Made by a program: the position numbers and the translations under genes
In this document: positions 48,044-64,000 of the stretch, one piece after another
Layout: each line of letters starts with the position of its first letter
How positions within the stretch are numbered: the stretch's first letter is position 1
Origin: an uncultured Bacteroidales bacterium
GTDB taxonomy: Bacteria; Bacteroidota; Bacteroidia; Bacteroidales; VadinHA17
Reading direction: 5' to 3'
NCBI GenBank assembly: GCA_963844935.1
Contig: CAWJQH010000003.1
Coordinates: forward strand, 238,505-302,504
DNA length: 64,000 nucleotides
The notes under the pieces: model-generated
Database searches by the model: none
What the model saw: the letters and a program-made list of their open reading frames with translations, nothing else
What the model was told of the DNA's origin: nothing

Positions 48044-49303
48044 ATGAGCTATTTCTTTACTTCTGAATCAGTCTCCGAAGGCCATCCTGACAAGGTAGCC
48101 GACCAGATTTCGGACGCACTGCTTGACAACTTTCTTGCATGGGACCCCGAATCAAAGGTCGCCTGCGAAACCCTCGTGACAACCGGTCAGGTGGTCGTTG
48201 CCGGCGAGGTTAAGACAAAGACCTATATCGACGTACAGACAATAATCAGGGAGGTCATTAACAGGATCGGCTATACAAAAGCCGAGTATATGTTTGACGG
48301 AAATTCATGCGGCATCTTCTCTTCCATCCATGAACAGTCGCCTGATATCAGCCAGGGCGTTGTACGAAAGAAAAAAGAGGACCAGGGCGCCGGCGACCAG
48401 GGCATGATGTTCGGCTATGCCACCAATGAGACAGAGAATTTCCTCCCCCTGTCGCTCGACATCGCTCACGAGCTCGTCTTCCAGCTGGCAGAGATACGCC
48501 GCGAAGGAAAAGTGATGAAATACCTCAGGCCCGATTCCAAATCGCAGGTCACCATCGAATACAAGGACGACGGCACGCCGCTGAGGGTTCATACAATTGT
48601 TGTTTCGACGCAGCATGACGACTTCGACAAGGATGAAAAGAAGATGCTTGAGACAATCAAGGCTGATGTTATAAATATTCTCATCCCAAGGGTTAAGGCG
48701 CAGTTTGGCAAACCGGTGCAGGCGCTGTTCGACAGCAAAATAAAATACCATGTCAACCCTACCGGTAAGTTTGTGATAGGCGGGCCTCACGGTGACAGCG
48801 GGCTCACGGGCCGTAAGATTATAGTCGATACCTATGGCGGCCGCGGAGCACACGGCGGCGGCGCCTTCTCAGGCAAGGACCCGTCAAAGGTCGACCGCTC
48901 GGCAGCCTACGCAGCACGTCACATTGCCAAGAATATGGTTGCTGCCGGCGTGGCCCGTGAGATGCTTGTCCAGGTTTCGTATGCCATCGGAGTAGCTAAA
49001 CCGGTGGGCATATACGTCAACACTGCCGGAACAGCTAAGGTAAAAATGACCGACGGGGAAATTGCTAAAAAAATAGAGAAGATGTTTGACCTCCGTCCCG
49101 CCATGATTGAAAAGGAGTACGGCCTTCGCAAACCCATTTACAGCGAGACTGCTGCCTACGGTCACATGGGCCGCAAGCCCCGCACCGTGGAAAAGGTGTT
49201 CCGCTCAGCCAACGGCAAACCGGACAGGAAAATAACAGTTCAGCTCTTCAAATGGGAGGAACTTGACAAGGTGAATGAGATTAAAAAAGCCTTCGCTCTT
49301 TAG
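48044..49303 (+). CDS. metK: Methionine adenosyltransferase (S-adenosylmethionine synthase)
   Basis: [51 protein letters not shown]. Confidence 0.95.
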
Positions 49304-50271: not shown

Positions 50272-53200
50272 TTATAGGTTTGGGGCGAGCCATTTTGCAG
50301 CCTCTTCGGTAGTCATACCGCAACGACGTGCGTAGTCTTCAAGCTGGTCTTTGCCGATGGTGCCCACATTAAAATAAGACGACCCCTGTGATGCGAAAAT
50401 GTAACCGCATACCGATGACACAGGCACCATGACAAAGCTTTCCGTGAGTGTCACTCCTATTGTCTCCGGAGCCCTCAGGAGATCAAAGATGACCTGCTTG
50501 CCTGTATGGTCAGGACAGGCAGGATAGCCCGGTGCCGGCCTGATGCCCTGGTACTTAACCTTGAACAATCTCGTCTGCCGTCAGCTTTTCGTCAGGGGCA
50601 TAACCCCAGTGCCTGACACGTATCTCACGGTGCAGCCACTCGGCAGCAGCTTCAGCAAAGCGGTCGGCAAGTATCCTCAGCATGATGCTGTTATAATCGT
50701 CGCCGGCAATATCCTGAGGCAGATTATCCTTTACCTTAACGGTAACGACAAATAATCCCGCATGATCATCCTTCTCTGCCACGAAGTCAGACAGGCAAAG
50801 GTTGGCATGGCCGGTCTCCTTTTCCTCCTGGTTGCGCAGGAATCGAAGAAACACCTCTTCGCTGCTCTTGTCCGGGAATAGCCTTATATCATCGCCATGC
50901 TTTTCTGCAGGAAATATTCCAGACAGAGCTTCAGCTGTCATCAGATCCTCTTCTGATATCCTTTCAATCATTTTCAGGGCATCGTCATACAGCTTCCTGG
51001 CTTCGGCGCCCTTTACCGGGTCACTGAAAATATCAGGATAACGTCCGCTGATCTTCCATGAAAAGAAAAAGAATGTCCAGTCAATGTAGTCAATCAGCGT
51101 CTTAACTTTTAAAGGACCCGAGTTTATCACTCCGGTCATGGCCGGAACTGGAGCAGGCCTCTCAATCCTGAATGCATTCTTTCTTGCGGCATCAAGGGAG
51201 ATGAGTTTCTTCACCTTCCTCGAGGCTTCATGCTCCTGCCTGAGCCTTTCGTATTTTTCCTTTACCGCTTCATGCATCGGATTTTCGGGTGATAACAGTC
51301 CCGACAGTACGGACACAGCCCTTGAGGCGTCCTTTACATGAACGGCCGAGAATGAATATACGGGAGCGATCTTTACCGCAGTATGGATTTCAGAAGTCGT
51401 TGCACCTCCGATCAGCAGGGGTATCTTAATTCCGCGTGCTTCCATCAGTGAAGCTACGTGCACCATCTCCTCGAGTGAGGGTGTGATCAGTCCTGACAGC
51501 CCTATGAAGTCTACCTTTTCACGTAGGGCAGTATCAAGAATGGTCTCTGCCGGCACCATCACTCCCAGGTCAATGATCTGGTAGTTATTGCATGACAGTA
51601 TTACGCCGACAATATTTTTCCCGATGTCGTGAACGTCACCCTTAACCGTTGCAAGGAGCACTTTACCGGCTGAAGAAACCTCTCCGACCCTTGTTTCTGC
51701 TTCAATATGCGGGGTGAGTTGTGCTACTGCCTTCTTCATTACCCTGGCGCTCTTGACCACCTGCGGGAAGGAACATCCTGCCCGAACCGAACAGGTCGCC
51801 TACCTCATTCATGCCGTCCATCAGCGGCCCCTCGATTATGTGCAGCGATCTTTCATACAACGGCCTGGCTTCTTCGACATCCCCGGCAATAAACATGTCT
51901 ATGCCGTTCACAAGGGCATATTTTATCCGCGTGTTGACATCACCGTCCCTCCAGGCCAGGTGCTTTGCTTCCTCTTCCTGCTTTCCTCCCTTCATCCCGG
52001 CGGCAAACTGCAGCAGCCTGTCGGTGGCGTCTTTCCGCCTGTTCATTACCACATCCTCCGTAAGGCGAAGCAGGTCAGGCTCAATGGAGGTGTAAACTCT
52101 CAGCAGTCCGGGATTGACAATACCCATATCCATGCCGGCTTTGATGGCATGGTACAGGAAGACCGCGTGCATTGCCTCCCTGACGGCGTCATTTCCGCGG
52201 AAGGAAAATGAGAGGTTGCTGACGCCGCCGCTCACCCTTGCATAAGGCAGGTTGGCCTTGATGAATTCAGTGGCTTTAATATAATCAACTGCATAATTGT
52301 TATGCTCCTCGATGCCCGTCCCGATGGCCAGTATGTTCGGGTCAATGAAAATATCTTCAGGAGGAAAACCGGCCTTTTCTGTAAGCAGCTTGTACGACAG
52401 TGTGGCAACTTCCTTTCTCCGCTCAAAGGTGTCAGCCTGGCCGCGCTCGTCGAAAAGCATCACAACGGCTGCCGCACCGTACCGGCGGACAAGGCGCGCC
52501 TTAGACAGGAACTCCTCCTCGCCCTCCTTGAGGCTGATAGAGTTGACGACAGGCTTGCCCTGGACACACTGCAGTCCTGCGACAATAACCTCCCATTTTG
52601 ATGAGTCGATCATAATCGGCAGTTTCGCAATGTCAGGCTCGCTCATCACCAGGTTGATGAATTTCTTAATGACCGCGGCGCCGTCGATCATTGCATCATC
52701 CATGCATATATCTATCACCTGCGCCCCGTTCTCAACCTGGTCACGGGCAACATCAAGGGCGGCCTGGTAATTTCCTTCACGTATCAGGCGGGCAAACTTG
52801 ATTGAGCCGGATACGTTGGTACGCTCACCTATGTTTACAAAATTTGTGTCGGGACGAATGACCAGCGGCTCGAGCCCGGCCAGCGCGGTGACATGCTTTC
52901 TTTCAGGGACCGTCCTGGGAGAGTATTGTTTAGCCAGTGAGGCGATGACCTTTATATGTTCAGGCGTTGTGCCGCAGCACCCGCCGATGATGTTCACCCA
53001 GCTGTTCTGCATGAAGCCGCTGATAATACTTCCCATGTATTGCGCATCCTGATCATACTCTCCGAACTGGTTTGGCAGGCCGGCGTTGGGATGAGCCGAG
53101 ACAAAGAAGGGGGCTTTTCCTGACAGCTCTTCGATGAAAGGCCTGAGCTGCTCGGCGCCCAGGGCGCAGTTAAGTCCTATGCTGAGTATCGGGTAGTGTG

Positions 53201-53894
53201 ACATTGTGATGAGGAAAGCCTCCAGGGTCTGGCCCGTCAGCGTTCTTCCGCTGGCATCGGTAATGGTGCCCGAGACCATCACGGGAAGGTCAACGGCTTT
53301 TTCTTCAAGCACCCCGCTGATGGCAAACAGCGCCGCCTTGGCATTCAGGCCGTCAAAGACCGTCTCAACAAGAAGCAGATCGGCTCCCCCGTCGACCAGT
53401 CCTCTCACCTGCTCCGCATAAGCATCAGCAAGCTCTGAAAAGGTGACTGTGCGTGCACCGGGATCACTGACGTCAGGCGACATGGAGGCCGTGCGGTTGG
53501 TGGGTCCCACCGAACCTGCAACCCATGCCTCTCTGCCGGTCTCCCTGAAATGTTCCATGACAGCCTCACGGCCAAGTTTTGCTGCCGCAAAATTGATATC
53601 GTAAACATACCGCTCCATGCCGTAATCAGCCATGGAGATCCTGTTACCGTTGAAAGTGTTTGTGCTGATTATGTCAGCTCCGGCCCTGAGATAGGCAAGG
53701 TGAATATCCCTTATAATCTTCGGCTGCGTTACCGACAGGAGATCATTATTGCCTTTCAGCGAACGGGGGTGCAGCTGAAACTGCTGGCCCCGGTACTGCT
53801 CTTCCGTCAGCCTGTGACGCTGTATCATTGTGCCCATGGCACCGTCGAGGATAAGTATCCTCTCGCGGAGTGTATCTTTTATATCGGCCTTCAC
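50272..53894 (-). pseudogene. metH: Cobalamin-dependent methionine synthase, split into three ORFs by two single-base insertions (or sequencing errors)
   Basis: ORF1 (730 aa) has the Hcy- and pterin-binding barrels and ends ...[15 protein letters not shown]2 (401 aa) continues [13 protein letters not shown]... with the B12 motif GDVHDIGKNIV. ORF3 (98 aa) continues KYQGIRPAPGYPACPDH. The total is about 1215-1230 aa, as expected for MetH. Confidence 0.8.
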
Positions 53895-53965: not shown

Positions 53966-54418
53966 TCACTTTGCACTGCCATGTGCAATGCCGTCCCATA
54001 TCTTAATAAGCGTGGCCGCAATTTTACCTATGAAATAAGGCATTTTGCGCCGGCTTATTTTCAGGGTTTTGTCTCCCCTGATTATTTCCCGCACCTGTCC
54101 TGCCACATCTTTTTCCGTGGACCACGGATCAGGAATCATGCTGGTATCACCCTGCGTTTTAATAAAGGTGGAGAGTTTGCCTCTCTGGATGGCGGTTACT
54201 CTGTGTACCACAAATCCTCCGTCTCTTCTGAGCGCCGCAACCCTTCCTGTTTTCAGGGGTTTGTCAGGGTCAGGGGGCGAAATGATTATTCTGTCGCCGG
54301 GTTTTATTGCCGGCCACATGCTGTATCCTCCGGCAGTGATGACAATTTCTTTCCCCTCTGTGAGCATGGATGAGGCTGCGGCAGTTGCCGCAGCGGCAGG
54401 AGCATTCTCACGCGCCAT
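53966..54418 (-). CDS. S26B (SipW/Sec11-type) signal-peptidase-like serine peptidase, 150 aa
   Basis: Boxes in canonical order: GYSMWPAIKPGD (Ser box), FVVHRV (His box), TQGDTS (GDN-like box). Starts 7 nt after the stop of the kinase-like gene. Confidence 0.6.
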   Translation of the reverse strand: MARENAPAAAATAAASSMLTEGKEIVITAGGYSMWPAIKPGDRIIISPPDPDKPLKTGRVAALRRDGGFVVHRVTAIQRGKLSTFIKTQGDTSMIPDPWSTEKDVAGQVREIIRGDKTLKISRRKMPYFIGKIAATLIKIWDGIAHGSAK

Positions 54419-54425
54419 GAGGTAA

Positions 54426-55283
54426 TCACGGACACGGTTGTCGGGCAGGAAATGCCAGGCTGCTGACCCTGACCGATGCAGCCAGGTCCGCGACTGATGC
54501 CATCAGCCGCGCAGAAGCCTCCCTGTCCCAGTTCTGCTGGATGCAGTTGGCCATTATCAGCCCGGCAGCCTCCGCACCTGAGAGCGGTGTCGAGATATTC
54601 GACTTCCCGTGACTGATTATCCACAGATGATCAACCTCAGCACTCCTTGGTTCATCATTTCTGTAAACGGGAGTGCTGTGCATCCTCCACCGGGCCCCCT
54701 CTTTAACCAGTATCAGCCTGTCATCGTGAACGACCCTGTCGCCGTTGCTGTCAAAAATTTTTGCCATTGTAGTCTTGCCGCTGCCTGACTTGCCGGTGAA
54801 AATCCAGCCTTTGCCGTCACTGATCACCCCAGATCCGTGGATCATTATGTCACCTTTCATCGAGGTCAGAAAATACAAAATCAGGCCGTCAACAGGATAC
54901 GGGAGAGGATTGATTTCACTTCCCGCTTCATCTGTAAAGAATTGCCAGGACATTTTGCCGCGCGGAATGATCAGCAGGGGAAATCGTGCAGGCTCTTTCA
55001 GCGTAACCCTGACGTAAGTGGCCTTTTCATCGGCAGCCACCTCCCAGAATGGTTCCCCGGACTGCTGCGGTCCTGCCGGTGCATCCTCAAGCAGCGGGGC
55101 ATTGAAAACCTTTGCCGCGCCTGCAGGGATCACGGCCCTTCCGGATTTTACTTCAATTGTCAGCTCCGGACCACCTCCTACAGCAGTTGTAAACGCGGCA
55201 AAACGCTCATCGGGCCTGAGACTTATCCCATAATCAGACTGAAGACGAATCCTCTTCCCGGCTATGACCAGATCAACTGTCAC
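54426..55283 (-). CDS. HPr-kinase-like (HprK-related) serine kinase, 285 aa
   Basis: The C-terminal half IHGSGVISDGKGWIFTGKSGSGKTTMAKIF parallels the HprK C-domain (HG..v...G.GvLi.G.SG.GKS). The GTG start overlaps the PqqD TGA (GTGA). Confidence 0.6.
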   Translation of the reverse strand: MTVDLVIAGKRIRLQSDYGISLRPDERFAAFTTAVGGGPELTIEVKSGRAVIPAGAAKVFNAPLLEDAPAGPQQSGEPFWEVAADEKATYVRVTLKEPARFPLLIIPRGKMSWQFFTDEAGSEINPLPYPVDGLILYFLTSMKGDIMIHGSGVISDGKGWIFTGKSGSGKTTMAKIFDSNGDRVVHDDRLILVKEGARWRMHSTPVYRNDEPRSAEVDHLWIISHGKSNISTPLSGAEAAGLIMANCIQQNWDREASARLMASVADLAASVRVSSLAFPARQPCP

Positions 55284-55570
55284 TGTTCCCTGAAATGAAG
55301 AAAACTCATGACCTGCTCAAGAAACTCCAGTATATCCTTCTCTGCCTCATCAGGACCGACATCGAACTCTTCAGCCATCATGGCTGTTATATCCCTGATG
55401 TTCCGCTTTCCGTCTATCGCCTCCCAGATAAACACACCCGTCTCGTTCAGCCTGTACAGTGAATCCATGTCTGCTATGTTATCCGTGAGCGGAATGAGGA
55501 GGCATTCGTCATTGATCCTGCGAAATACAACCCTGGTTGAATGCGACGGTATTGAGGATACTGATATCAT
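55280..55570 (-). CDS. PqqD-family protein (RiPP recognition element / peptide chaperone), 96 aa
   Basis: ...VVFRRINDECLLIPL...LYRLNETGVFIWEAIDGKRNIRDITAMMAEEFDVGPDEAEKDILEFLEQ is the typical PqqD beta-sheet plus helices pattern. Confidence 0.7.
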   Translation of the reverse strand: MISVSSIPSHSTRVVFRRINDECLLIPLTDNIADMDSLYRLNETGVFIWEAIDGKRNIRDITAMMAEEFDVGPDEAEKDILEFLEQVMSFLHFREQ

Positions 55571-55637: not shown

Positions 55638-57767
55638 ATGGCAAGAAAGAACACGGTGAAAAAGAGCACCGGAATTGATCAGAAAAAACTCATCGAAATG
55701 ATCGCAGGGGTGATGTCGAAGAACCCCAAACAGACATTTAATTACAAACAGCTGGCTGCAAGGCTGCAGATCACCGACAAGGAAGAAAAGAGGGCGCTTT
55801 CGGAGGCCCTGCTGAGGATGAAAAAGGATGGCCTGGCCGAGGAGAGAAACCACGGCAAGTATGTCCTGAAGGATGTTGGCGGTTATGTCACAGGAACCAT
55901 CGACCTTACAAAATTCGGTTATGCATTTGTTCTCTCCGAGGAATCGGAGGAAGATGTTTTCATTGCAGCGCGTAACCTCAACACCGCCCTCCACGGCGAC
56001 CAGGTGAAGGTGCTTCTCTACGCCCGCCATAAAGGTAAGAGGCCTGAGGGTGAGGTAGTTGAGATCCTCAGCAGGTCACGTGCCTCCTTTGTCGGAACGA
56101 TTGAGCTGACACCGCAGTTTGCCTTCCTGATCCCCGATAACAAGAATATGCCATTCGATCTTTTCATCCCCCTGTCGAAGCTTAACGGAGCAAAGCAGGG
56201 ACAGAAGGCTGTGGCAAAACTTATAGATTGGGATCAGCGGTCGCGAAACCCGATGGGCGAGATAACCGAGGTTTTGGGTTATCCCGGAGAGAATGATACC
56301 GAGATGCACGCCATCCTTGCCGAGTTCGGTCTTCCGAACAAATTTGCACCTGAGATTGAAGCTGCAGCGGAAAAGATTTCCCCGGAGATAACAATGGAGG
56401 ATATATCAGCCAGACGCGACTTCCGCAACGTGCCGACATTTACAATCGACCCTGAAGATGCCAAGGACTTTGACGACGCCCTTTCCATCAGCCGGCTGCC
56501 GAACGGCAATATGGAAATAGGAGTGCATATAGCTGATGTCACACATTATGTCAAACCCGGAACGGTGATAGAGAAGGAGGCTCAGGAACGCGCTACATCG
56601 GTCTACCTTGTGGACCGCACAATACCCATGCTGCCTGAAAAACTGTCGAACCATATATGCTCGCTTAATCCCTTTGAGGATAAGCTGACCTACTCGGCAG
56701 TCTTCGAGCTCGACAGTAAGTCTTCCGTCGTCAATGAATGGTTCGGCCGGACTATCATAAAATCAGATAAACGTTTCTCCTACGGGGAGGCTCAGAAGGT
56801 CATTGATACGGGGGAAGGTGATATGAAGGAGCAGCTGCTGACCCTGCATAACCTTGCGCAGAGCCTTCGTGCAAAGCGCTTTGCCACCGGCTCATTTGCC
56901 TTTGAACGGATTGAAGTCAAGTTCAACCTGAGTAAATCAGGTGTACCGCTGGGGATCCTTTTCCGCGAGTACGGCACATCAAACCAGCTCATCGAGGAAT
57001 TCATGCTGCTGGCCAACAGGCGGGTGGCGGAGTATGTGGGTAAAAAACTGAAGGGGAAAACTTTCGTTTACCGTATCCATGATAAACCCAATCCTGAAAA
57101 ACTGAGTTCATTCAGCTATTTCATCAAGCGCTTCGGCTATACACTGGACACCCAGGATGTAAAAGGTCTTCCTGCCGCCATGAACAAACTGATGGATGAT
57201 GTCTCCGGGAAGAAAGAACAGAACGTGATCGAGACGCTTGCTCTCAGGTCGATGGCAAAGGCCATTTATTCAACCGAAAATATTGGTCACTACGGTCTTT
57301 CATTCAGCCATTACACGCACTTCACATCACCTATCAGGCGCTACCCTGACATGATGGTTCACCGCCTGCTTACCAGGTACCTTGAGGGACAGCCTTCACG
57401 GGACGGCGACAAGTTCGAGAAGCTGTGTGAGTATTCGTCGAAGAGGGAGCGCCTCGCCACCGATGCCGAAAGGGCTTCGATCAAATACAAGCAGGTGGAG
57501 TTCATGAAGGACAAGATAGGACAGGTTTTTGAAGGGGTTATCTCCGGAGTAACCGAGTGGGGCATCTATGTCGAGATCATCGAGAACCAGTGCGAGGGCA
57601 TGATTGCCCTGCGTGAACTGCAGGATGACTTTTTTGAATATGACGAAGAGAACTACTCAATCAGGGGAAGACACTCGGGGAAAGTGTATATGCTGGGTGA
57701 CAAGATAAACGTGGAAATCGTTAAGGCTGACCTGCAGAAGAGGCAGCTCGATTACCGCTTTGCCTGA
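55638..57767 (+). CDS. rnr: Ribonuclease R
   Basis: N-terminal winged-helix/CSD region. RNB domain (TIDPEDAKDFDDALS, ...HYGLSFSHYTHFTSPIRRYPD). C-terminal S1 domain (FEGVISGVTEWGIYVEI). Confidence 0.9.
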   Translation: MARKNTVKKSTGIDQKKLIEMIAGVMSKNPKQTFNYKQLAARLQITDKEEKRALSEALLRMKKDGLAEERNHGKYVLKDVGGYVTGTIDLTKFGYAFVLSEESEEDVFIAARNLNTALHGDQVKVLLYARHKGKRPEGEVVEILSRSRASFVGTIELTPQFAFLIPDNKNMPFDLFIPLSKLNGAKQGQKAVAKLIDWDQRSRNPMGEITEVLGYPGENDTEMHAILAEFGLPNKFAPEIEAAAEKISPEITMEDISARRDFRNVPTFTIDPEDAKDFDDALSISRLPNGNMEIGVHIADVTHYVKPGTVIEKEAQERATSVYLVDRTIPMLPEKLSNHICSLNPFEDKLTYSAVFELDSKSSVVNEWFGRTIIKSDKRFSYGEAQKVIDTGEGDMKEQLLTLHNLAQSLRAKRFATGSFAFERIEVKFNLSKSGVPLGILFREYGTSNQLIEEFMLLANRRVAEYVGKKLKGKTFVYRIHDKPNPEKLSSFSYFIKRFGYTLDTQDVKGLPAAMNKLMDDVSGKKEQNVIETLALRSMAKAIYSTENIGHYGLSFSHYTHFTSPIRRYPDMMVHRLLTRYLEGQPSRDGDKFEKLCEYSSKRERLATDAERASIKYKQVEFMKDKIGQVFEGVISGVTEWGIYVEIIENQCEGMIALRELQDDFFEYDEENYSIRGRHSGKVYMLGDKINVEIVKADLQKRQLDYRFA

Positions 57768-59284
57768 TCGCTCTCTATCAGCTCAAGAAGCCTGGCGAGG
57801 GCTTCAGCCTCGGGAACATTTTTGATCACTGCTTCTGTGCCCCGGTAGATGTGCACTTTGCCTTCAGCGGCGCCGACATAGCCGTAGTCTGCCCCGGCCA
57901 TCTCACCCGGACCGTTCACGATACACCCCATAACTGCGATCTTCATCCCTGTAAGATGTGATGTGGCTGCCTTGACCCTTTGCACAGCTTCTTCCAGATT
58001 GAACTTAGTCCTGCCGCACGTGGGGCATGAGATATATCTCGTACGGGTTATGCGTGCTTCGGTTGCCTGCAGTATTGAGAATGCAAGGGAGTTGAGCGCT
58101 GCACCGCGGATCATCCCTGTGTTTGAAATACAGAGCCCCGCCGGCCTGCGTGAAATAAAAAACCGGCCGAGCAATGATGCAGCGTGAATGCCAAGCTTTT
58201 CCCGGTCATCTTCATTGAAGACAGGGTTTAAAACTCCGCGAAACTTCTGAACTTCATTACTGTTCAGCATTTCAGATGCGGTTAATGTCAGAACTTCGCC
58301 GCTGTATAAGTTGCCCTGCTCATCCCTGAAGCTGCCGCCGTCTTCGGAATAAACCTGCGGGAAATACCTTGCTCCGGTCATTTCAAACGGCAGTTCCGGG
58401 CATGGATTCTGTACCCGTCCTGAGGGTCCCGCAACGAAACTGATTATCTCCCGGGCAACAGGGATCTCCCTTTCCGGAGCCTCAGTGAGCGACACCCTGA
58501 CAGTGTCACCGATACCCTCTGCGAGCAGTGTTCCGATACCGGCAGCCGAGATGATCCTGCCGTCTTCTCCTTCCCCGGCCTCAGTGATTCCAAGATGAAC
58601 GGGATAATGCATCCCTTCTCCGGCCATCATCCTTACCAGTGTCCGGTTTGATTCAACCATGATCCTCGTGTCCGACGACTTCATCGACACAACAAGATTA
58701 TTAAATCCTTCTCCCCGCATGATCCTAAGGAACTCAAGTGCCGAGACAGCCATGCCTTCAGGTGTATTTCCGTAACGGGTCATAATACGGTCAGAGAGCG
58801 ATCCGTGGTTTACACCTATCCGCACAGCTGTGCCGTGTTCAGTGCATATGCTGATGAGGGGCAAAAGACGCTCCCTTATGCGTTCCAGCTCTGCCATGTA
58901 CTCACTGTCAGTCAGTTCATGCCGGATGAACGAGGCGCGCCTGTCGGCATAGTTACCCGGATTGATCCGCACTTTTTCAACTATCCGTGCTGCAACCTCA
59001 GCAGCGGCTGGATTAAAATGTATGTCGGCACAGAGCGGCGTGTCAAATCCTGCCCTGCGCAGCTCCTTCTTAATGTTTGCAAGGTTTTCCGCCTCCGTGA
59101 CACCCTGGGCTGTCAGCCTTACAAGCTCACCGCCTGCTTCAATTATCCTGATGCTCTGCCTGACACATGCGGCGGTGTCAAGTGTGTCAGTATTGGTCAT
59201 GCTCTGCACACGCACCGGGAGATCGCCTCCCATGCTCAGACTGCCGATGTTGATTATCTGTGATTTATATGACACAGCCGTCAC
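57752..59284 (-). CDS. ispG: 4-hydroxy-3-methylbut-2-en-1-yl diphosphate synthase
   Basis: [32 protein letters not shown], and the cluster cysteines ISCPTCGR and [10 protein letters not shown]. The GTG start overlaps the cysS stop. The 3' end overlaps rnr by 16 nt (convergent). Confidence 0.9.
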
Positions 59285-60750
59285 ACGGTTACCTCCCAGT
59301 CATAGCCGTCCTTACGGTCTTTAACCGTAATACCGAGCTCGCTCAGCCTGTCGCGTATCCGGTCCGAAACGCTCCATTCCTTCCTGGCCTTGGCTTCCTG
59401 CCTCATGTCAAGCAGCAGGGTCATGACACCTGCGAGCTTTTCGTTTCCGCCGCCTTCCTCTGCAGTGAGGCCGAAGATATCATGAACAAATGTTTTGAAT
59501 ATCCCTTTCAGGGACTTAAGGTCATCTGCAGAAAGCTTCTCCTTGCCGTCACTCGCAAGGTTTATAATCCTTACTGCTTCAAAGATATGCGCTAATGCCA
59601 CCGGAGTGTTAAGGTCGTCGTTCATGGCCTCAGTGCATTTGTTCTCAATGCCGCTCACATCTGTTGTTGATTTTTCGGAGGGCTTCAGGTTGGCCAGAGT
59701 CCTTTCCGCAGCCATCAGCTTCTGCAGTCCGGCCGAAGCGGCAAGTAGGGCTTCGTTGCTGAAGTCGAGTGTGCTGCGGTATTGGGCCTGCAGCATGAAG
59801 AAACGGATGGTCATGGGCGAATAGGCCTGCATCAGCAGCTTATGGTTACCGGTGAAAAGCTCCTCGAGGGTGATGAAGTTTCCGAGTGATCTTGCCATCT
59901 TCTGTCCGTTGATTGTAACCATATTGTTATGCACCCAGTACCGCACTGACGGCTTGCCCAGCGCTGCGGTGCTCTGCGCAATCTCGCACTCATGATGGGG
60001 AAAGATAAGATCCATTCCTCCTCCGTGAATATCGAACACCTCGCCAAGGTACTTTGTGCTCATCACCGAACACTCCAGGTGCCATCCCGGAAATCCCTCG
60101 CTCCACTGCGACGGCCACCTCATTATGTGTCCCGGGGAGGCCTTCTTCCATAAGGCGAAATCAAACTGCCCGTGCTTCTCTTCCTGGCCTTCAAGTGCCC
60201 GGCTGTTGGCCTTCATATCCTCCAGAACCCTTCCCGAGAGTACACCGTAAGAAAGGTTTTTATCATATTTCTCAACGTCGAAATAGACCGAGCCGTTCGA
60301 CACATAAGCATATCCCTTGCTGATAAGCTTGTCGATCATCTGCTGCTGCTCGATGACATGACCCGTGGCGCGCGGCTCTATCGAGGGAGCAAGGGTATTG
60401 AGCTTCTCCATGGCCTTGTGAAAACTGTTCATGTACTTCTGAACGACTTCCATGGGCTCGAGGTTCTCCTGCCTCGCCTTGCGGCTTATCCTGTCTTCTC
60501 CCGTCTCATCGACCTCATTCTCAAGGTGGCCGACGTCAGTGATGTTGCGCACATATCTCACTTTATATCCGAGGTGCATCAGGTATCTGTACAGCACATC
60601 GAATGTCACTGCCGGCCTGGCATGACCCAGATGTGACTCGCTGTAAACAGTGGGGCCGCAGACATACATGCCTGCAAAAGGAGGCGCCAGGGGTTCGAAC
60701 AACTCTTTCTTACGGGTGAGGGTGTTATACAGGTAAAGGGCACTTTTCAT
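59281..60750 (-). CDS. cysS: Cysteine--tRNA ligase
   Basis: [19 protein letters not shown] (HIGH) and KMARSLGN (KMSKS), 489 aa. Confidence 0.95.
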
Positions 60751-60810: not shown

Positions 60811-60847
60811 ATAAAACAGCCCCGGGAAATGTTATCCCGGGGCTGTT
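60811..60847 (-). terminator. Rho-independent terminator ending the ABC / nucleotidyltransferase transcription unit
   Basis: The minus strand reads ACAGCCCCGGGA-taacatt-TCCCGGGGCTGT: a 12-13-bp GC-rich stem followed by TTTTAT. Confidence 0.65.
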
Positions 60848-61094
60848 CGCACACGTCTCCACCACACGAGGAGACACCACACGCAGCGAGACAGGCTCTA
60901 AAGACTGCCTGTACCTGTGTTGACTTTCAATATAAAACTAATTGCAGACATGTAGTTCTCACTCAAAAACTAATAAACAAACAACAGACTTTCCTTTCAC
61001 AAAAATTTAAAAACTTCGACTAAAGTAAATATATAAACGTAATTTCTAAAAAACAAGAATTCTTAAAGGTTTTTGAGGAAAATGTGGATTTTTC

Positions 61095-62288
61095 TTACTT
61101 CTGCCGATATTCAGGCAAAATAGGGTTAATCACCCATAAGATTTTTCCGAGTCTGTGCGGGTAACGGAGCAGGGCGGAAAAGGAAGTGCTGCATCCGTAC
61201 CTGTTTTTCATGAATTCTATGGAAGGGAACAGATCGCCTGTTATGAAAATCAGTTTGCGCCTGATGCCTCTGAGTGATTTAAGGTTTTCCAGAAACAGTT
61301 CTTTCTGGCTCCGGGGCCTCGCCTGGCCCGGAGCCAGAAGATTGCCCCTGAAGGCAGCCACCTTCTCCTGCTCAGAACCCTCGCGGGCTTTGAACTCCGG
61401 AGGGATATCAATTCCGTAAAATTTATTCAGTATTGTCATTATAGTTCTTAATCCGCCCTGTATTCCGGCCTGGTCCGCATCGGAAAGGAGGTTACCGCTG
61501 AAAATCTTTCCTTCGTGTTTTTTTACGAGAAGGAAGATGTCCGTATAAAGCCTCAGCTGAAACTCACCCTTGACCTCATGCTTGAAAATATGGTTGACAA
61601 GACCGAGCAAGGCAATCCCCGGAGGAAGTACATAATAGGTTTTACCCGCTATTGAAATTACTTCCGGATTATCCAGGGCTCTTCTGACAAGTGCTGAACC
61701 CTCCGGGCCGAACAGCCGGTGATGAAGGTCGACTGAGATGCCGTTGCGGTGCAGCTCGGGCAGGTGATTGCCAAGATCAAGAATGATATGCCTGTACAAT
61801 GAAGATTTCATTGGCATTGAAATGAAGCCGGCCCTGATGAGTATATCCCGTGCCCTGAGAGCATCCCCAGGCGCAACAAGGAGATCGGCGTCACTCATCT
61901 GCCTCAGTCCCCTTGAACCGTAAACGGAATGTTCAAGAGCCAGTCCTTTCAGAAGCAAAGCCCTGATGCCTTCCTTCTCAAGCTCTGCCACTGCGTCAGC
62001 TGCCTCTGCAGTGATGTAAGACACTCTGGCTATTGCTTTAAACCGTATGTTCTCAAGCAGGTTCCGCTCCTGTTCCGGAACCGCCTCCGTCAGACCCAGG
62101 TCAGTAATGTTCTGCCAGGCGAGTGCGGCGACACCGTGCCTGATGGCCAGGTCCGCAAAAAGCTTCCAGGCGGTCAGGGTGCGGGAGCATTTTTCTGCCT
62201 GAACCCGTTCCTCCTCCGTGAATGTGGTCCTGCTGAGCAGGAGCAACAGCGTGATGACCTGATCCTTTTCATTTTCGGATGTGGTCAT
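61095..62288 (-). CDS. Uncharacterised nucleotidyltransferase family protein (NTP_transf_5-like), 397 aa
   Basis: N-terminal helical region ...LLLLLSRTTFTEEE...WKLFADLAIRHGVAALAW.... Core ...LLLKGLALEHSVYGSRGLRQMSDADLLV...ISVDLHHRLF is typical of this family. ATGA overlap with the upstream ABC gene. Confidence 0.6.
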   Translation of the reverse strand: MTTSENEKDQVITLLLLLSRTTFTEEERVQAEKCSRTLTAWKLFADLAIRHGVAALAWQNITDLGLTEAVPEQERNLLENIRFKAIARVSYITAEAADAVAELEKEGIRALLLKGLALEHSVYGSRGLRQMSDADLLVAPGDALRARDILIRAGFISMPMKSSLYRHIILDLGNHLPELHRNGISVDLHHRLFGPEGSALVRRALDNPEVISIAGKTYYVLPPGIALLGLVNHIFKHEVKGEFQLRLYTDIFLLVKKHEGKIFSGNLLSDADQAGIQGGLRTIMTILNKFYGIDIPPEFKAREGSEQEKVAAFRGNLLAPGQARPRSQKELFLENLKSLRGIRRKLIFITGDLFPSIEFMKNRYGCSTSFSALLRYPHRLGKILWVINPILPEYRQK

Positions 62289-64000
62289 CGGTACATCGAT
62301 TTCTGCCTGGTGAACATTGAATAATATCTTCCCCGTGCCTCCATAAGCTCATCATGTGAACCCGTCTCGGCAATGCGTCCCTTATCCAGTACGATAATAC
62401 GGTCGGCATCCCTGACGTTGGCTAGACGGTGACTGATGAAGATGCATGTCCTGCCGTCTGTGATCCTGTCAAGATCAGAAAAGATCTCGTACTCAGAGTC
62501 GGCATCGAGCGATGATGACGGCTCGTCAAGTATCAGCACGGGACTATCGCGGTAGAGTGCCCTTGCAATGGCAATCTTCTGCCACTCTCCCCAGCTCAGC
62601 TCACGGCTTCCTCCGGTCTGATGACCGAGCATCGTCTCATAACCCTGCGGCAGGCTCTCCAGCAAAGCCGAGACCCCTGCCATTGAAGCTGCCCGCCTCA
62701 GGCGTTCCTGGTTGTCGCTTCCACTGTTGTCAGCCAGGCGGATATTGTCACCGGCCGTGAGATAGTACAGCATGAAGTCCTGAAAAACAACGGAAAAAAG
62801 TCTCCGGTATTCATGCAGGTCAAATCTGTCAATGCTCTCTCCGTTAAGGGTGATACTTCCTGAATCCGGGTCATAAAGCCTGCATAGAAGCTTTGCCAGC
62901 GTCGTCTTGCCCGAACCGTTTGGACCGACAATTGCAATTTTCTCGCCCCTGGTGATATTCAGGGTTACATTTTCGAGTGCCGGACTGCCGGCGCCGGGGT
63001 AAGTGAAAGTGAGGTTTTCAACATCAATCCGGTTGAATGAAAGGATGCCCGAAGCTTTTTCCTGATTAGGCATATCGCTCTCAATATCAAGAAAATGAAA
63101 CAGGTCGTCAAGAAAGAGCCTGTTCTCTGCCAGCCCGGAATAACCAGAGACAGCATCGCGCAGATAGATAAGCGCCTGCCTGAAGGCAATAATATACATC
63201 GCCAGTTCTCCGGCAGTAATTTCTGATCTGGTATAGGAAAAAGAGGCATAGATCAGCACGCCGGCAAATGCAATAACTTTCACTACGGAGGCTGTACCTT
63301 CAAGTATTGAGTTCTTTCTGACGGCAGCAATCTCAGGCTCCTTTGACGCCGCAAAGTGTTTCCGGAAAAGCTTCTCGAAATATCCGGCAAGGCCAAACAG
63401 CCTCACCTCCCTGGCCGGTTTTTCTCCCGTCAGGAGCCAGCTGAAATATGATGCCTGCCGTGAATGAGCCGTCACGGCTTTTTTCGCTTCATAAAGCCTG
63501 CCGGACGAGCTCAGCTTCATCCATAACACCGGCAAAAAAACAACTGCAAGGACTGCAAGGGGTATTATGCCGAAAGTTCCGAGAACATAACCCATTGCCA
63601 TAAATGAGATGACACCACGCAGGAGGAGAATGATGTCTGAAACCATTCCTGCAGGCCTCCAGGAAATGTCCCTTGCCGCTCTTGACAGCTTGTCATAAAA
63701 CCCGGGGTCTTCAAAAAATCTTAATCCGAGAGTCGCCGAATGGCTGTGTATTAGTGAGGCAATATGATTTTCAAGCTGGAAGGATTGCTTTTTTGAGATA
63801 TACTGACCCAGAGAGTTGAGAAGGTCATCAGCAAGAAGTGTAAGGGCAACAGCTGCTATAAGTCCCGTTATAGCCCGCACCTGGTTAACCGTATCGCTTC
63901 CTGCTTCCCCTGTAAGTATGTCTATATAATGCCTGAGGAGAAAAATTGCCGCCAGCGGAAGAAAAGACCTGATAACCAGTATAATCAGGTTGATGACAGT
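62285..64000 (-). CDS. ABC exporter (fused 6-TM permease + ATPase); 5' end lies beyond the window
   Basis: Walker A GPNGSGKTT, variant signature LSWGEWQKIAIARAL, Walker B VLILDEPSSSLD, H-loop FISHR. The frame remains open from the GTG at 63880 up to position 64000. Confidence 0.8.
   Translation of the reverse strand, partial: TVINLIILVIRSFLPLAAIFLLRHYIDILTGEAGSDTVNQVRAITGLIAAVALTLLADDLLNSLGQYISKKQSFQLENHIASLIHSHSATLGLRFFEDPGFYDKLSRAARDISWRPAGMVSDIILLLRGVISFMAMGYVLGTFGIIPLAVLAVVFLPVLWMKLSSSGRLYEAKKAVTAHSRQASYFSWLLTGEKPAREVRLFGLAGYFEKLFRKHFAASKEPEIAAVRKNSILEGTASVVKVIAFAGVLIYASFSYTRSEITAGELAMYIIAFRQALIYLRDAVSGYSGLAENRLFLDDLFHFLDIESDMPNQEKASGILSFNRIDVENLTFTYPGAGSPALENVTLNITRGEKIAIVGPNGSGKTTLAKLLCRLYDPDSGSITLNGESIDRFDLHEYRRLFSVVFQDFMLYYLTAGDNIRLADNSGSDNQERLRRAASMAGVSALLESLPQGYETMLGHQTGGSRELSWGEWQKIAIARALYRDSPVLILDEPSSSLDADSEYEIFSDLDRITDGRTCIFISHRLANVRDADRIIVLDKGRIAETGSHDELMEARGRYYSMFTRQKSMYR

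Follow-up and report, generated by a model that had tools for sequence, protein, structure and literature searches.

We describe a set of genes in an uncultured Bacteroidales bacterium whose products probably act together in the maturation of a ribosomally synthesized peptide, and which are divided between two positions on the chromosome. The 64,000-nucleotide stretch analyzed here (the window, G000:C3:238505-302504; genomes, contigs and loci carry G, C and L numbers throughout the comparison) ends in the genes for an ATP-binding cassette (ABC) exporter and an NTP_transf_5-type nucleotidyltransferase, and the cysS-ispG-rnr block (55638-60750) separates these, over a distance of 5.5 kb, from the genes for a PqqD-family protein and for a kinase fused to a peptidase. 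We consider it likely that the exporter and the nucleotidyltransferase form the export and tailoring half of a single peptide-maturation system of which PqqD and the kinase::peptidase protein are the other half. The nearest known system is the cyclase-less linear polyphosphorylated peptide (LPP) pathway and not a lasso peptide cluster, and by analogy the genes in the window appear to encode a Gram-negative (Bacteroidales) variant of it. The reading is carried by contiguous forms of the cluster in related species, by protein fusions, by co-occurrence across the order, and by a candidate precursor gene located just beyond the end of the window.

LPP clusters are exemplified by lppAKBSDN of Paenibacillus alginolyticus, and LPPs have been stated to occur in Bacillota only (Popov et al., Nat Commun 2026, PMC13381572). 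These clusters are without a lasso cyclase and share a five-protein core consisting of a signal peptidase I (SpI)-like leader peptidase (LppS), a discrete recognition element (RRE) for peptides made on ribosomes and modified after translation (RiPPs) (LppB), an HprK-like kinase (LppK), an uncharacterized nucleoside triphosphate transferase (LppN), and an MsbA-like exporter (LppD) (PMC13381572). The kinase adds several phosphates to Ser3 of the core, LppS requires LppB and cleaves the phosphorylated precursor better, and LppA is cleaved after Thr-1 (PMC13381572). Profile matches to Pfam and NCBIfam were used to identify the genes in the window, and those of the proposed system, together with two genes of a divergent operon beyond the window end, one of them for a protein with a type IX secretion system (T9SS) tail, are as follows (positions beyond 64000 are window-equivalent):

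53966-55283, minus strand: HprK/phosphoenolpyruvate carboxykinase (PEPCK)-fold kinase fused to an endoplasmic reticulum (ER)/archaeal-type signal-peptidase-I domain, LppK::LppS-like (profiles and structural model)
55280-55570, minus strand: PqqD-family RRE, LppB-like chaperone (PF05402, E=4.3e-17)
61095-62288, minus strand: NTP_transf_5 nucleotidyltransferase-fold protein, LppN-like (PF14907, E=8.8e-46, 157 bits where the cut-off is 31)
62285-64000 in the window, minus strand: MsbA-like ABC half-transporter, LppD-like exporter (Pfam ABC_membrane and ABC_tran)
64267-66960, plus strand, outside the window: T9SS-tailed beta-helix protein of 897 aa, divergent from the ABC gene
67074-67253 (G000:C3:305578-305757), plus strand, outside the window: candidate 59-aa precursor (motif scan of small intergenic open reading frames, ORFs)

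Linkage of the two gene sets in related genomes

A scan of wider relatives, using one genome per species and an alignment of four kinase sequences as query, returned 80 loci. In 43 of them, which we refer to as type B, cysS, ispG and the oppositely oriented rnr are followed by PqqD, HprK-like, S24 peptidase and ABC genes in an uninterrupted series, with NTP_transf_5 next in 28 of the 43; compared with the window, the housekeeping genes of these loci are 65-70% identical and the cluster proteins 36-44%. Seventeen further loci are compact and without rnr, and six of these carry an S24::ABC fusion of the type found in Paludibacter (fusions were scored by a same-segment test). Compact clusters are also present in G045 (PqqD-HprK-S24::ABC-NTP_transf_5), in G295 (T9SS protein-PqqD-peptide-HprK-S24-ABC-NTP_transf_5), and in G308 (T9SS protein-peptide-PqqD-HprK-S24::ABC).

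Because 43 related species have a contiguous cluster at the same place in the chromosome, the arrangement in the window appears to be the derived one, a cyclic permutation in which ABC and NTP_transf_5 have moved to the far side of cysS-ispG-rnr. Within the genus, about 26 genomes have NTP_transf_5 and HprK-like genes on one contig, on the same strand, and 6-8 kb apart. The split layout is kept where the fusion protein is as little as 45% identical, with the same gene order seen at 45-54%. The rearrangement seems to be an old one. The preliminary description of this DNA had proposed that the two modules were halves of one toolkit and had left open whether a single cluster was split by rearrangement or two modules cooperate in trans; the comparison of synteny bears out the former view.

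The fusion partner of the peptidase also differs between lineages, being the kinase in the window lineage and the ABC exporter in others, a Rosetta-stone arrangement that is a classical sign of functional linkage. Two S24::ABC proteins of Bacteroidales, from Paludibacter propionicigenes (WP_013444635.1) and a Porphyromonadaceae metagenome-assembled genome (MAG), are listed in the supplement of PMC13381572 with an RRE neighbor and no assigned precursor, and are undiscussed in the main text of that paper. Across 301 genomes of the order, and at the detection thresholds chosen, 17 have both NTP_transf_5 and an HprK-like gene, 8 have NTP_transf_5 only, 11 HprK-like only, and 265 neither (odds ratio ~51; p=7e-15, a nominal Fisher value that ignores phylogenetic relatedness).

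The profiling suggested in the preliminary description is thus informative at the level of the order, but not within the genus. Seven genus genomes seemed to have lost both modules; matches to cysS and ispG are likewise absent from those assemblies, so the region is simply missing from them, the modules never vary independently, and we discarded the apparent co-loss as evidence. As a separate observation, neither cysS nor ispG was detected in G003, G004, G006, G009, G010, G012, G029 and G034 in spite of completeness of up to 98%; these assemblies seem to be without the entire neighborhood, a gap that may distort presence/absence profiles.

PqqD and the kinase::peptidase protein

In the window itself the kinase and peptidase are found as separate ORFs, an HprK-like one (54426-55283, minus strand) and an S24/S26 peptidase-like one (53966-54418, minus strand), because one extra T in a short T-run near 54448-54453 breaks the reading frame. 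A single 438-aa ORF spans both parts in G018, which is 83% identical, and the fused architecture is present in more than 300 metagenomic proteins, all of them from Bacteroidales MAGs. The extra T is absent from contigs of three independent short-read metagenomes of freshwater sediment, which have 0-1 other differences over the site, and the split in the window is therefore either a one-base assembly error or a rare variant.

Sequence matches of the kinase part are weak (Hpr_kinase_C, E=0.009; TIGR04355, E=3.8e-6); those of the peptidase part are to Peptidase_S24 (E=4.7e-5) and TIGR02228 sigpep_I_arch (E=2e-11, under its cut-off). An AlphaFold2 model of the fusion protein has a predicted local distance difference test score (pLDDT) of 84 and a predicted template-modeling (pTM) score of 0.74, and Foldseek searches with it match the kinase part to HprK/P catalytic domains (TM 0.5-0.59) and to ATP-dependent PEPCK (both E ~1e-5), and the C-terminal part to human signal peptidase complex subunits of the SEC11 type (7p2q/7p2p, E ~3e-4 to 7e-4) and to SipA, which confirms both folds. 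Among 29 sequences, reaching down to 53% identity, there is no variation in the Walker A motif GxSGSGKTT, in the HDDRL motif, or at the peptidase positions S321, H360 and D379. Precomputed annotation places the kinase-like domain in Pfam PF27840 (ScmC), and the top NCBIfam match of PqqD is ScmD, far under its cut-off. Searched against PDB sequences, PqqD has weak matches to PbaB1 (9x90, E=4e-4) and LppB (9x8z, E=0.045).

The ABC exporter and NTP_transf_5 operon

The ABC gene runs past the end of the window, with a full length of 606 aa and a start 105 nt further on (window-equivalent 64105). Reading the contig beyond that point, we find that the next gene upstream is divergent, and the operon thus consists of ABC and NTP_transf_5 only. 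The two overlap in an ATGA on the minus strand (...atg tac cgA TGA cc... at 62288-62285), confirming the translational coupling that had been described. The top NCBIfam match of the exporter is MsbA, under that model's cut-off; it keeps intact Walker A and Walker B motifs and an intact H-loop, and the protein of the window has neither a protease domain nor, specifically, the C39 peptidase domain that defines peptidase-containing ATP-binding transporters (PCATs). The signature LSWGEWQ, previously noted as unusual, is indeed present, but it is shared by the whole exporter clade in the form LS[W/I/M]G[E/Q]WQK, so that the alignment shows it to be characteristic of the family rather than peculiar to this locus, and with the other motifs intact it is probably functional.

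The assignment of the second protein to NTP_transf_5 holds by a wide margin of score, as the PF14907 match listed above indicates, and it carries a KG...SDADLLV motif resembling the Asp motif of nucleotidyltransferases, as read by eye and unaligned to solved enzymes. A PDB sequence search with this protein gave no significant match. Orthologues adjoin PqqD-HprK-S24-ABC in other families. A different neighborhood is seen in the genus member G002, where the gene for a 1009-aa T9SS protein abuts NTP_transf_5 (G002:C11, L015:2400-7300), and the peptide, PqqD, and kinase::peptidase genes are retained.

A candidate precursor peptide

Small ORFs beside PqqD, after the S24 domain, and in the ABC/beta-helix and NTP_transf_5/cysS spacers were considered as precursors and rejected, there being no room for one or no conservation. 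The preliminary description had suggested that a precursor might be encoded upstream of the ABC gene, outside the window, and a candidate does lie there, in a divergent operon and not, as had been envisaged, in further upstream genes of the ABC operon. It is a 59-aa ORF directly following the divergent T9SS beta-helix gene, with the sequence MKGEKRRYVRPAVIRIELDYSISLVMMTSAPPPPPPRRGIGDSKPNDPFASPFSDKPFN (abridged, MKGEKRRYVRPAVIRIELDYSISLVMMTSAPPPPPPRR...DPF...). Across 24 genus genomes it is 66-95% identical, every copy being near the ABC gene, and a profile search finds about 850 homologues of 52-70 aa, all of them unannotated. In a first sample of the order, weak matches to the peptide were seen in only three genomes, those with the enzyme system.

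The N-terminal part of the family reads YxxPx[VI]xx[IV]x[LI]Dxx[IT]SL and is leader-like, with invariant Tyr, Pro, Asp and Leu; the sequence beyond is more variable, with a Pro-rich middle and a conserved C-terminal (D/N)PF. Within the 301 genomes, the peptide and an HprK-like gene occur together in 23, each alone in 5, and neither in 268 (p=5e-25, nominal in the same sense as above), such that 23 of the 28 peptide-positive genomes have the kinase. At least 13 of the genomes sampled have a family member 0.1-0.8 kb upstream of the HprK-like gene and on its strand, and the peptide gene adjoins PqqD in G059, G295, G308, Geofilum sp. OHC36d9, a Flavobacteriales MAG, and a Paludibacter MAG. We conclude from these sequence relationships that the 59-aa YxxP peptide is the probable precursor of the system and represents a new family. 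Comparison with LppA suggests that the leader would be cleaved after a conserved Ser/Thr following SLx[LM]x, which is T28 in the window genome.

In every context examined, the peptide gene is preceded by one for a homologous T9SS-tailed protein, whose C-terminal 400-530 residues are homologous across families (E=8e-18 to 1e-41 against the beta-helix protein of the window lineage). This conservation marks the T9SS-tailed surface protein as an apparent further partner, the seventh, of the system. The gene convergent to the candidate precursor encodes a PKD-repeat protein of 1230 aa that has a CHU_C T9SS signal (L001:7351-11043, minus strand; window-equivalent 67351-71043), and in other lineages the pair of T9SS protein and peptide is followed by an immunoglobulin-like (Ig)/CHU_C protein and PorP/SprF. 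These neighbors hint at a larger conserved surface-protein module.

Comparison with known systems

The likeness to LPP clusters extends over all five core proteins by type, LppN and LppD being matched by family assignment and LppB by a clear PqqD domain. The systems also share a Ser-His-Asp peptidase of the SpI-like (archaeal/ER) type (S321, H360 and D379 in the window lineage), the YxxPxV element in the precursor leader, which is the core of the motif bound by lasso and LPP RREs (PMC13381572), and the lack of a macrolactam synthetase and B2 protease, there being no Asn_synthase or Transglut_core3 match in or near the genes in the window. Some members of both are associated with surface-polysaccharide loci, and in both a kinase-type lasso cluster is present elsewhere in the genome. 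They differ in that the system described here is found in Bacteroidota and not Bacillota; its genes in the window genome form three transcription units parted by cysS-ispG-rnr and the T9SS gene, although relatives have them side by side; the peptidase is joined to the kinase or, in relatives, to the ABC exporter; the precursor has the form YxxPx[VI]xx[IV]x[LI]D..ISL with a Pro-rich middle and C-terminal DPF; there is a constant T9SS-tailed partner; and the identity of PqqD to the solved LppB is marginal.

The resemblance to kinase-containing lasso clusters that had been noticed earlier lies in PqqD (B1), the HprK-like kinase, the NTP_transf_5-type protein, and the ABC exporter, which also travel together in paeninodin/pseudomycoidin-type lasso clusters. 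However, neither a lasso cyclase (Asn_synthase-like) nor a B2 cysteine protease is present at the window locus, and the leader peptidase there is a predicted serine peptidase of signal-peptidase fold. The only Transglut_core3 match in the genome is a fragment on contig C4, where cyclase and protease fragments are found at ~10-11.7 kb. PCATs of the C39 type resemble the proteins of G045, G308 and Paludibacter in having the leader peptidase joined N-terminally to the ABC half-transporter, an arrangement suggesting that cleavage and export are coupled; but the peptidase of the present system is S24/S26 signal-peptidase-like and not a C39 cysteine protease, there is no double-glycine leader, and in the window the protease is on the kinase.

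SynChlorMet cassettes share the ScmC-family (PF27840) kinase-like domain and a ScmD-like PqqD, although the window system is without a radical S-adenosylmethionine (SAM) enzyme and its scores to the Scm equivalogs are far under the cut-offs. A variant in G054 (C31, L005:8600-13900) has the order PqqD-HprK-like-(349-aa protein)-NTP_transf_5-radical SAM/SPASM with no S24 peptidase or ABC gene nearby, and may form a bridge to SynChlorMet-type cassettes. The architecture goes unmentioned in a 2023 paper on RiPP mining in Bacteroidales.

Alternative interpretations

The alternative that survives best accepts that the five enzymes are one system and regards the 59-aa peptide as an accessory of the T9SS protein, with the true precursor located elsewhere or being a larger protein. 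Several findings count in its favor and against our reading of the peptide as substrate. The T9SS-tailed protein precedes the peptide in all contexts, and in some lineages the pair is found in polysaccharide loci where 10 kb around it hold no kinase, so that the peptide could mainly serve the T9SS protein. No peptide was found within 10 kb of the 43 contiguous type-B loci. Further, a six-frame search of the whole genome with the published leader consensus YxxPxVLxHQxIxFETxxS, in strict and relaxed forms, gave no match, the candidate having only YxxPxV[I/L] in common with it before continuing as RIELDYSISL. Against this alternative, the peptide is a same-strand neighbor of PqqD, HprK-like, or both in at least 13 sampled genomes as well as in Geofilum, the Flavobacteriales MAG, and Paludibacter; its YxxPx[VI] corresponds to the motif that lasso and LPP RREs bind; its N-terminal half is conserved and the remainder, apart from Pro and (D/N)PF, is variable, as in RiPP precursors; and it co-occurs with the kinase in 23 of 28 genomes. 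We regard an accessory role for the peptide as unlikely.

A second alternative is that the two modules are independent, with ABC and NTP_transf_5 serving a different pathway, for instance one that exports or modifies a surface polysaccharide or lipid, and being neighbors of PqqD and the kinase through synteny. NTP_transf_5 paralogues do occur in polysaccharide loci (on C4 of the same genome at 18.1-18.9 kb, and in L026), G059 has NTP_transf_5 alone among housekeeping genes, the top family match of the ABC protein is MsbA, and the profile within the genus is silent on the matter, as described above. The 8 genomes with NTP_transf_5 and no kinase agree with this alternative and weigh against a single system, as does the failure to detect NTP_transf_5 in 11 of the 28 kinase-positive genomes at the same thresholds. 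The link between NTP_transf_5 and the kinase is thus not obligatory, which fits NTP_transf_5 as an accessory enzyme that has paralogues in polysaccharide loci and in lasso loci. Set against these points, dozens of species belonging to several families have orthologous ABC and NTP_transf_5 genes contiguous with PqqD-HprK-S24, fusions of the peptidase to the same ABC clade occur in six loci as well as in both Bacteroidales entries of the PMC13381572 data set, and the order-wide odds ratio is high. Independence of the modules is, in our estimation, decidedly improbable, more so than an accessory role for the peptide.

A decaying, non-functional remnant of a kinase-type lasso cluster, left after loss of the cyclase and B2 protease, might be proposed from the heavily fragmented paeninodin-like cluster on C4 of the same genome, the frameshift between kinase and peptidase in the window, and fragmented matches in some genus genomes, but is very improbable given that the frameshift is absent from three independent assemblies, the five genes stay intact in the lineage even where the fusion protein is only 45-55% identical, the catalytic residues are invariant, and cyclase-less clusters of like composition are functional in Bacillota (PMC13381572).

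Other observations weigh against a single, LPP-like system more generally. The similarity of PqqD to LppB is weak and falls slightly short of that to the lasso chaperone PbaB1, and G002, although a member of the genus, is without the ABC gene. Deletion of lppN had no detectable effect, so NTP_transf_5 is dispensable for the Bacillota products (PMC13381572). RNA in a metatranscriptome of matching sample type maps to the T9SS beta-helix and PKD genes and not to ABC or NTP_transf_5, in data that are very thin (a single run, contigs only). The co-occurrence tests treat genomes as unrelated, and the biochemistry of the five-gene system is that of Bacillota members, with the Bacteroidota branch known from sequences and models. 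With these points taken into account, we still consider it likely that the two gene sets are halves of one peptide-maturation system.

Intervening genes and other features of the genome

The genes between the two modules lie where the preliminary description had placed them, cysS and ispG on the same strand as the modules and rnr on the opposite one, and a conserved non-coding unit is situated between cysS and NTP_transf_5:

55638-57767, plus strand: rnr (Pfam RNB, strong score)
57752-59284, minus strand: ispG (Pfam GcpE, strong score)
59281-60750, minus strand: cysS (Pfam tRNA-synt_1e, strong score)
60811-61029, minus strand: conserved non-coding unit comprising a promoter-like box, ~200 nt, and a hairpin with T-run

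The hairpin and T-run at 60811-60847 had been taken for the end of the ABC-NTP_transf_5 operon. The terminator is real (-31.5 kcal/mol, z=-6.5) and is located 250 nt past the NTP_transf_5 stop. However, an alignment of the spacer between NTP_transf_5 and cysS from 8 genus genomes reveals a promoter-like box (TTTACTTTAGTC, 61017-61029) and, between it and the terminator, ~200 nt with an invariant GTCTCGCTGC block, kept in 7-8 of the genomes. Since these elements precede it, the terminator probably ends a separate transcription unit. A TAnnTTTG-type box follows the terminator directly before cysS, and RNAalifold predicts the terminator and one inner stem for the spacer. A scan of 44-64 kb against Rfam found no family for the conserved spacer, and a 17-codon ORF within it was dismissed because it is not conserved, its ATG being lost in G005 and G030. 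From its conservation, 60811-61029 is probably a separate small RNA or a cysS leader/attenuator outside the peptide system; if a small RNA, it may be a novel one.

Elsewhere in the window, metH (50272-53894, minus strand) is broken into three ORFs (730, 401 and 98 aa) and is a single 1206-aa ORF in G018 and other relatives. As the indel in the neighboring HprK::S24 gene is absent from short-read assemblies, the breaks in metH are probably also homopolymer or indel assembly errors. A SAM-II riboswitch (RF01726, 47929-47988, plus strand, 54.1 bits against a gathering threshold of 44, E=4e-8), the one match given by the Rfam scan, is directly upstream of metK (48044-49303).

The paeninodin-like lasso cluster on C4 (G000:C4:8200-19100; L002:5200-16100) is inside a polysaccharide locus and is heavily fragmented, with many frameshifts that may reflect decay or assembly error. 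Its parts are an HprK-like gene, a fragment of Transglut_core3 interrupted by stops, fragments of Asn_synthase, a Cys-rich protein, PqqD, and NTP_transf_5 in two pieces, interspersed with WecA-, CapD- and DegT-like genes. A third PqqD gene, on C7 (G000:C7:1880-2790; L003), comes after a gene for a Cys-rich (CxxCxxCC) protein, with which it forms a pair paralogous to that on C4, and is followed by several kb without long ORFs that hold DUF2341-like fragments.

Proposed pathway and implications

By analogy with the LPP pathway, we propose that the divergent operon past the window end yields the 59-aa precursor, and that PqqD would bind its YxxPxV leader and present it to the kinase domain, which would phosphorylate a Ser or Thr near the junction of leader and core. 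The fused peptidase domain would then remove the leader, an order of events that fits the preference of LppS for a phosphorylated substrate (PMC13381572). The ABC half-transporter would carry the product across the inner membrane, and NTP_transf_5 may attach a further group. The split layout presumably arose in the window lineage by relocation of ABC-NTP_transf_5 beyond the rnr-ispG-cysS block, and the peptidase became joined to the kinase there.

LPPs were described only in 2026, with the statement that they are confined to Bacillota, and a sizeable Gram-negative branch is now seen. Its new features are an easily recognized precursor family, a constant T9SS-cargo partner, and protease fusions that point to coupling of phosphorylation, cleavage and export, and Paludibacter propionicigenes and Geofilum sp. 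OHC36d9 are carriers in which these could be tested. A RiPP cluster that is split by housekeeping genes and a divergent operon is one for which cluster finders that demand contiguity miss both the cluster and the precursor.

The carriers so far are Bacteroidales, Geofilum, and a Flavobacteriales MAG, and the precursor family numbers about 850 members. A more speculative proposal, to which we give only tentative credence, is that this is a widespread Bacteroidota phosphopeptide system whose Pro-rich modified product is not a diffusible antibiotic and may instead be periplasmic, working with or attached to the T9SS beta-helix protein or a surface glycan. If so, RiPP-type chemistry would be tied to type IX secretion and to the architecture of the cell surface.

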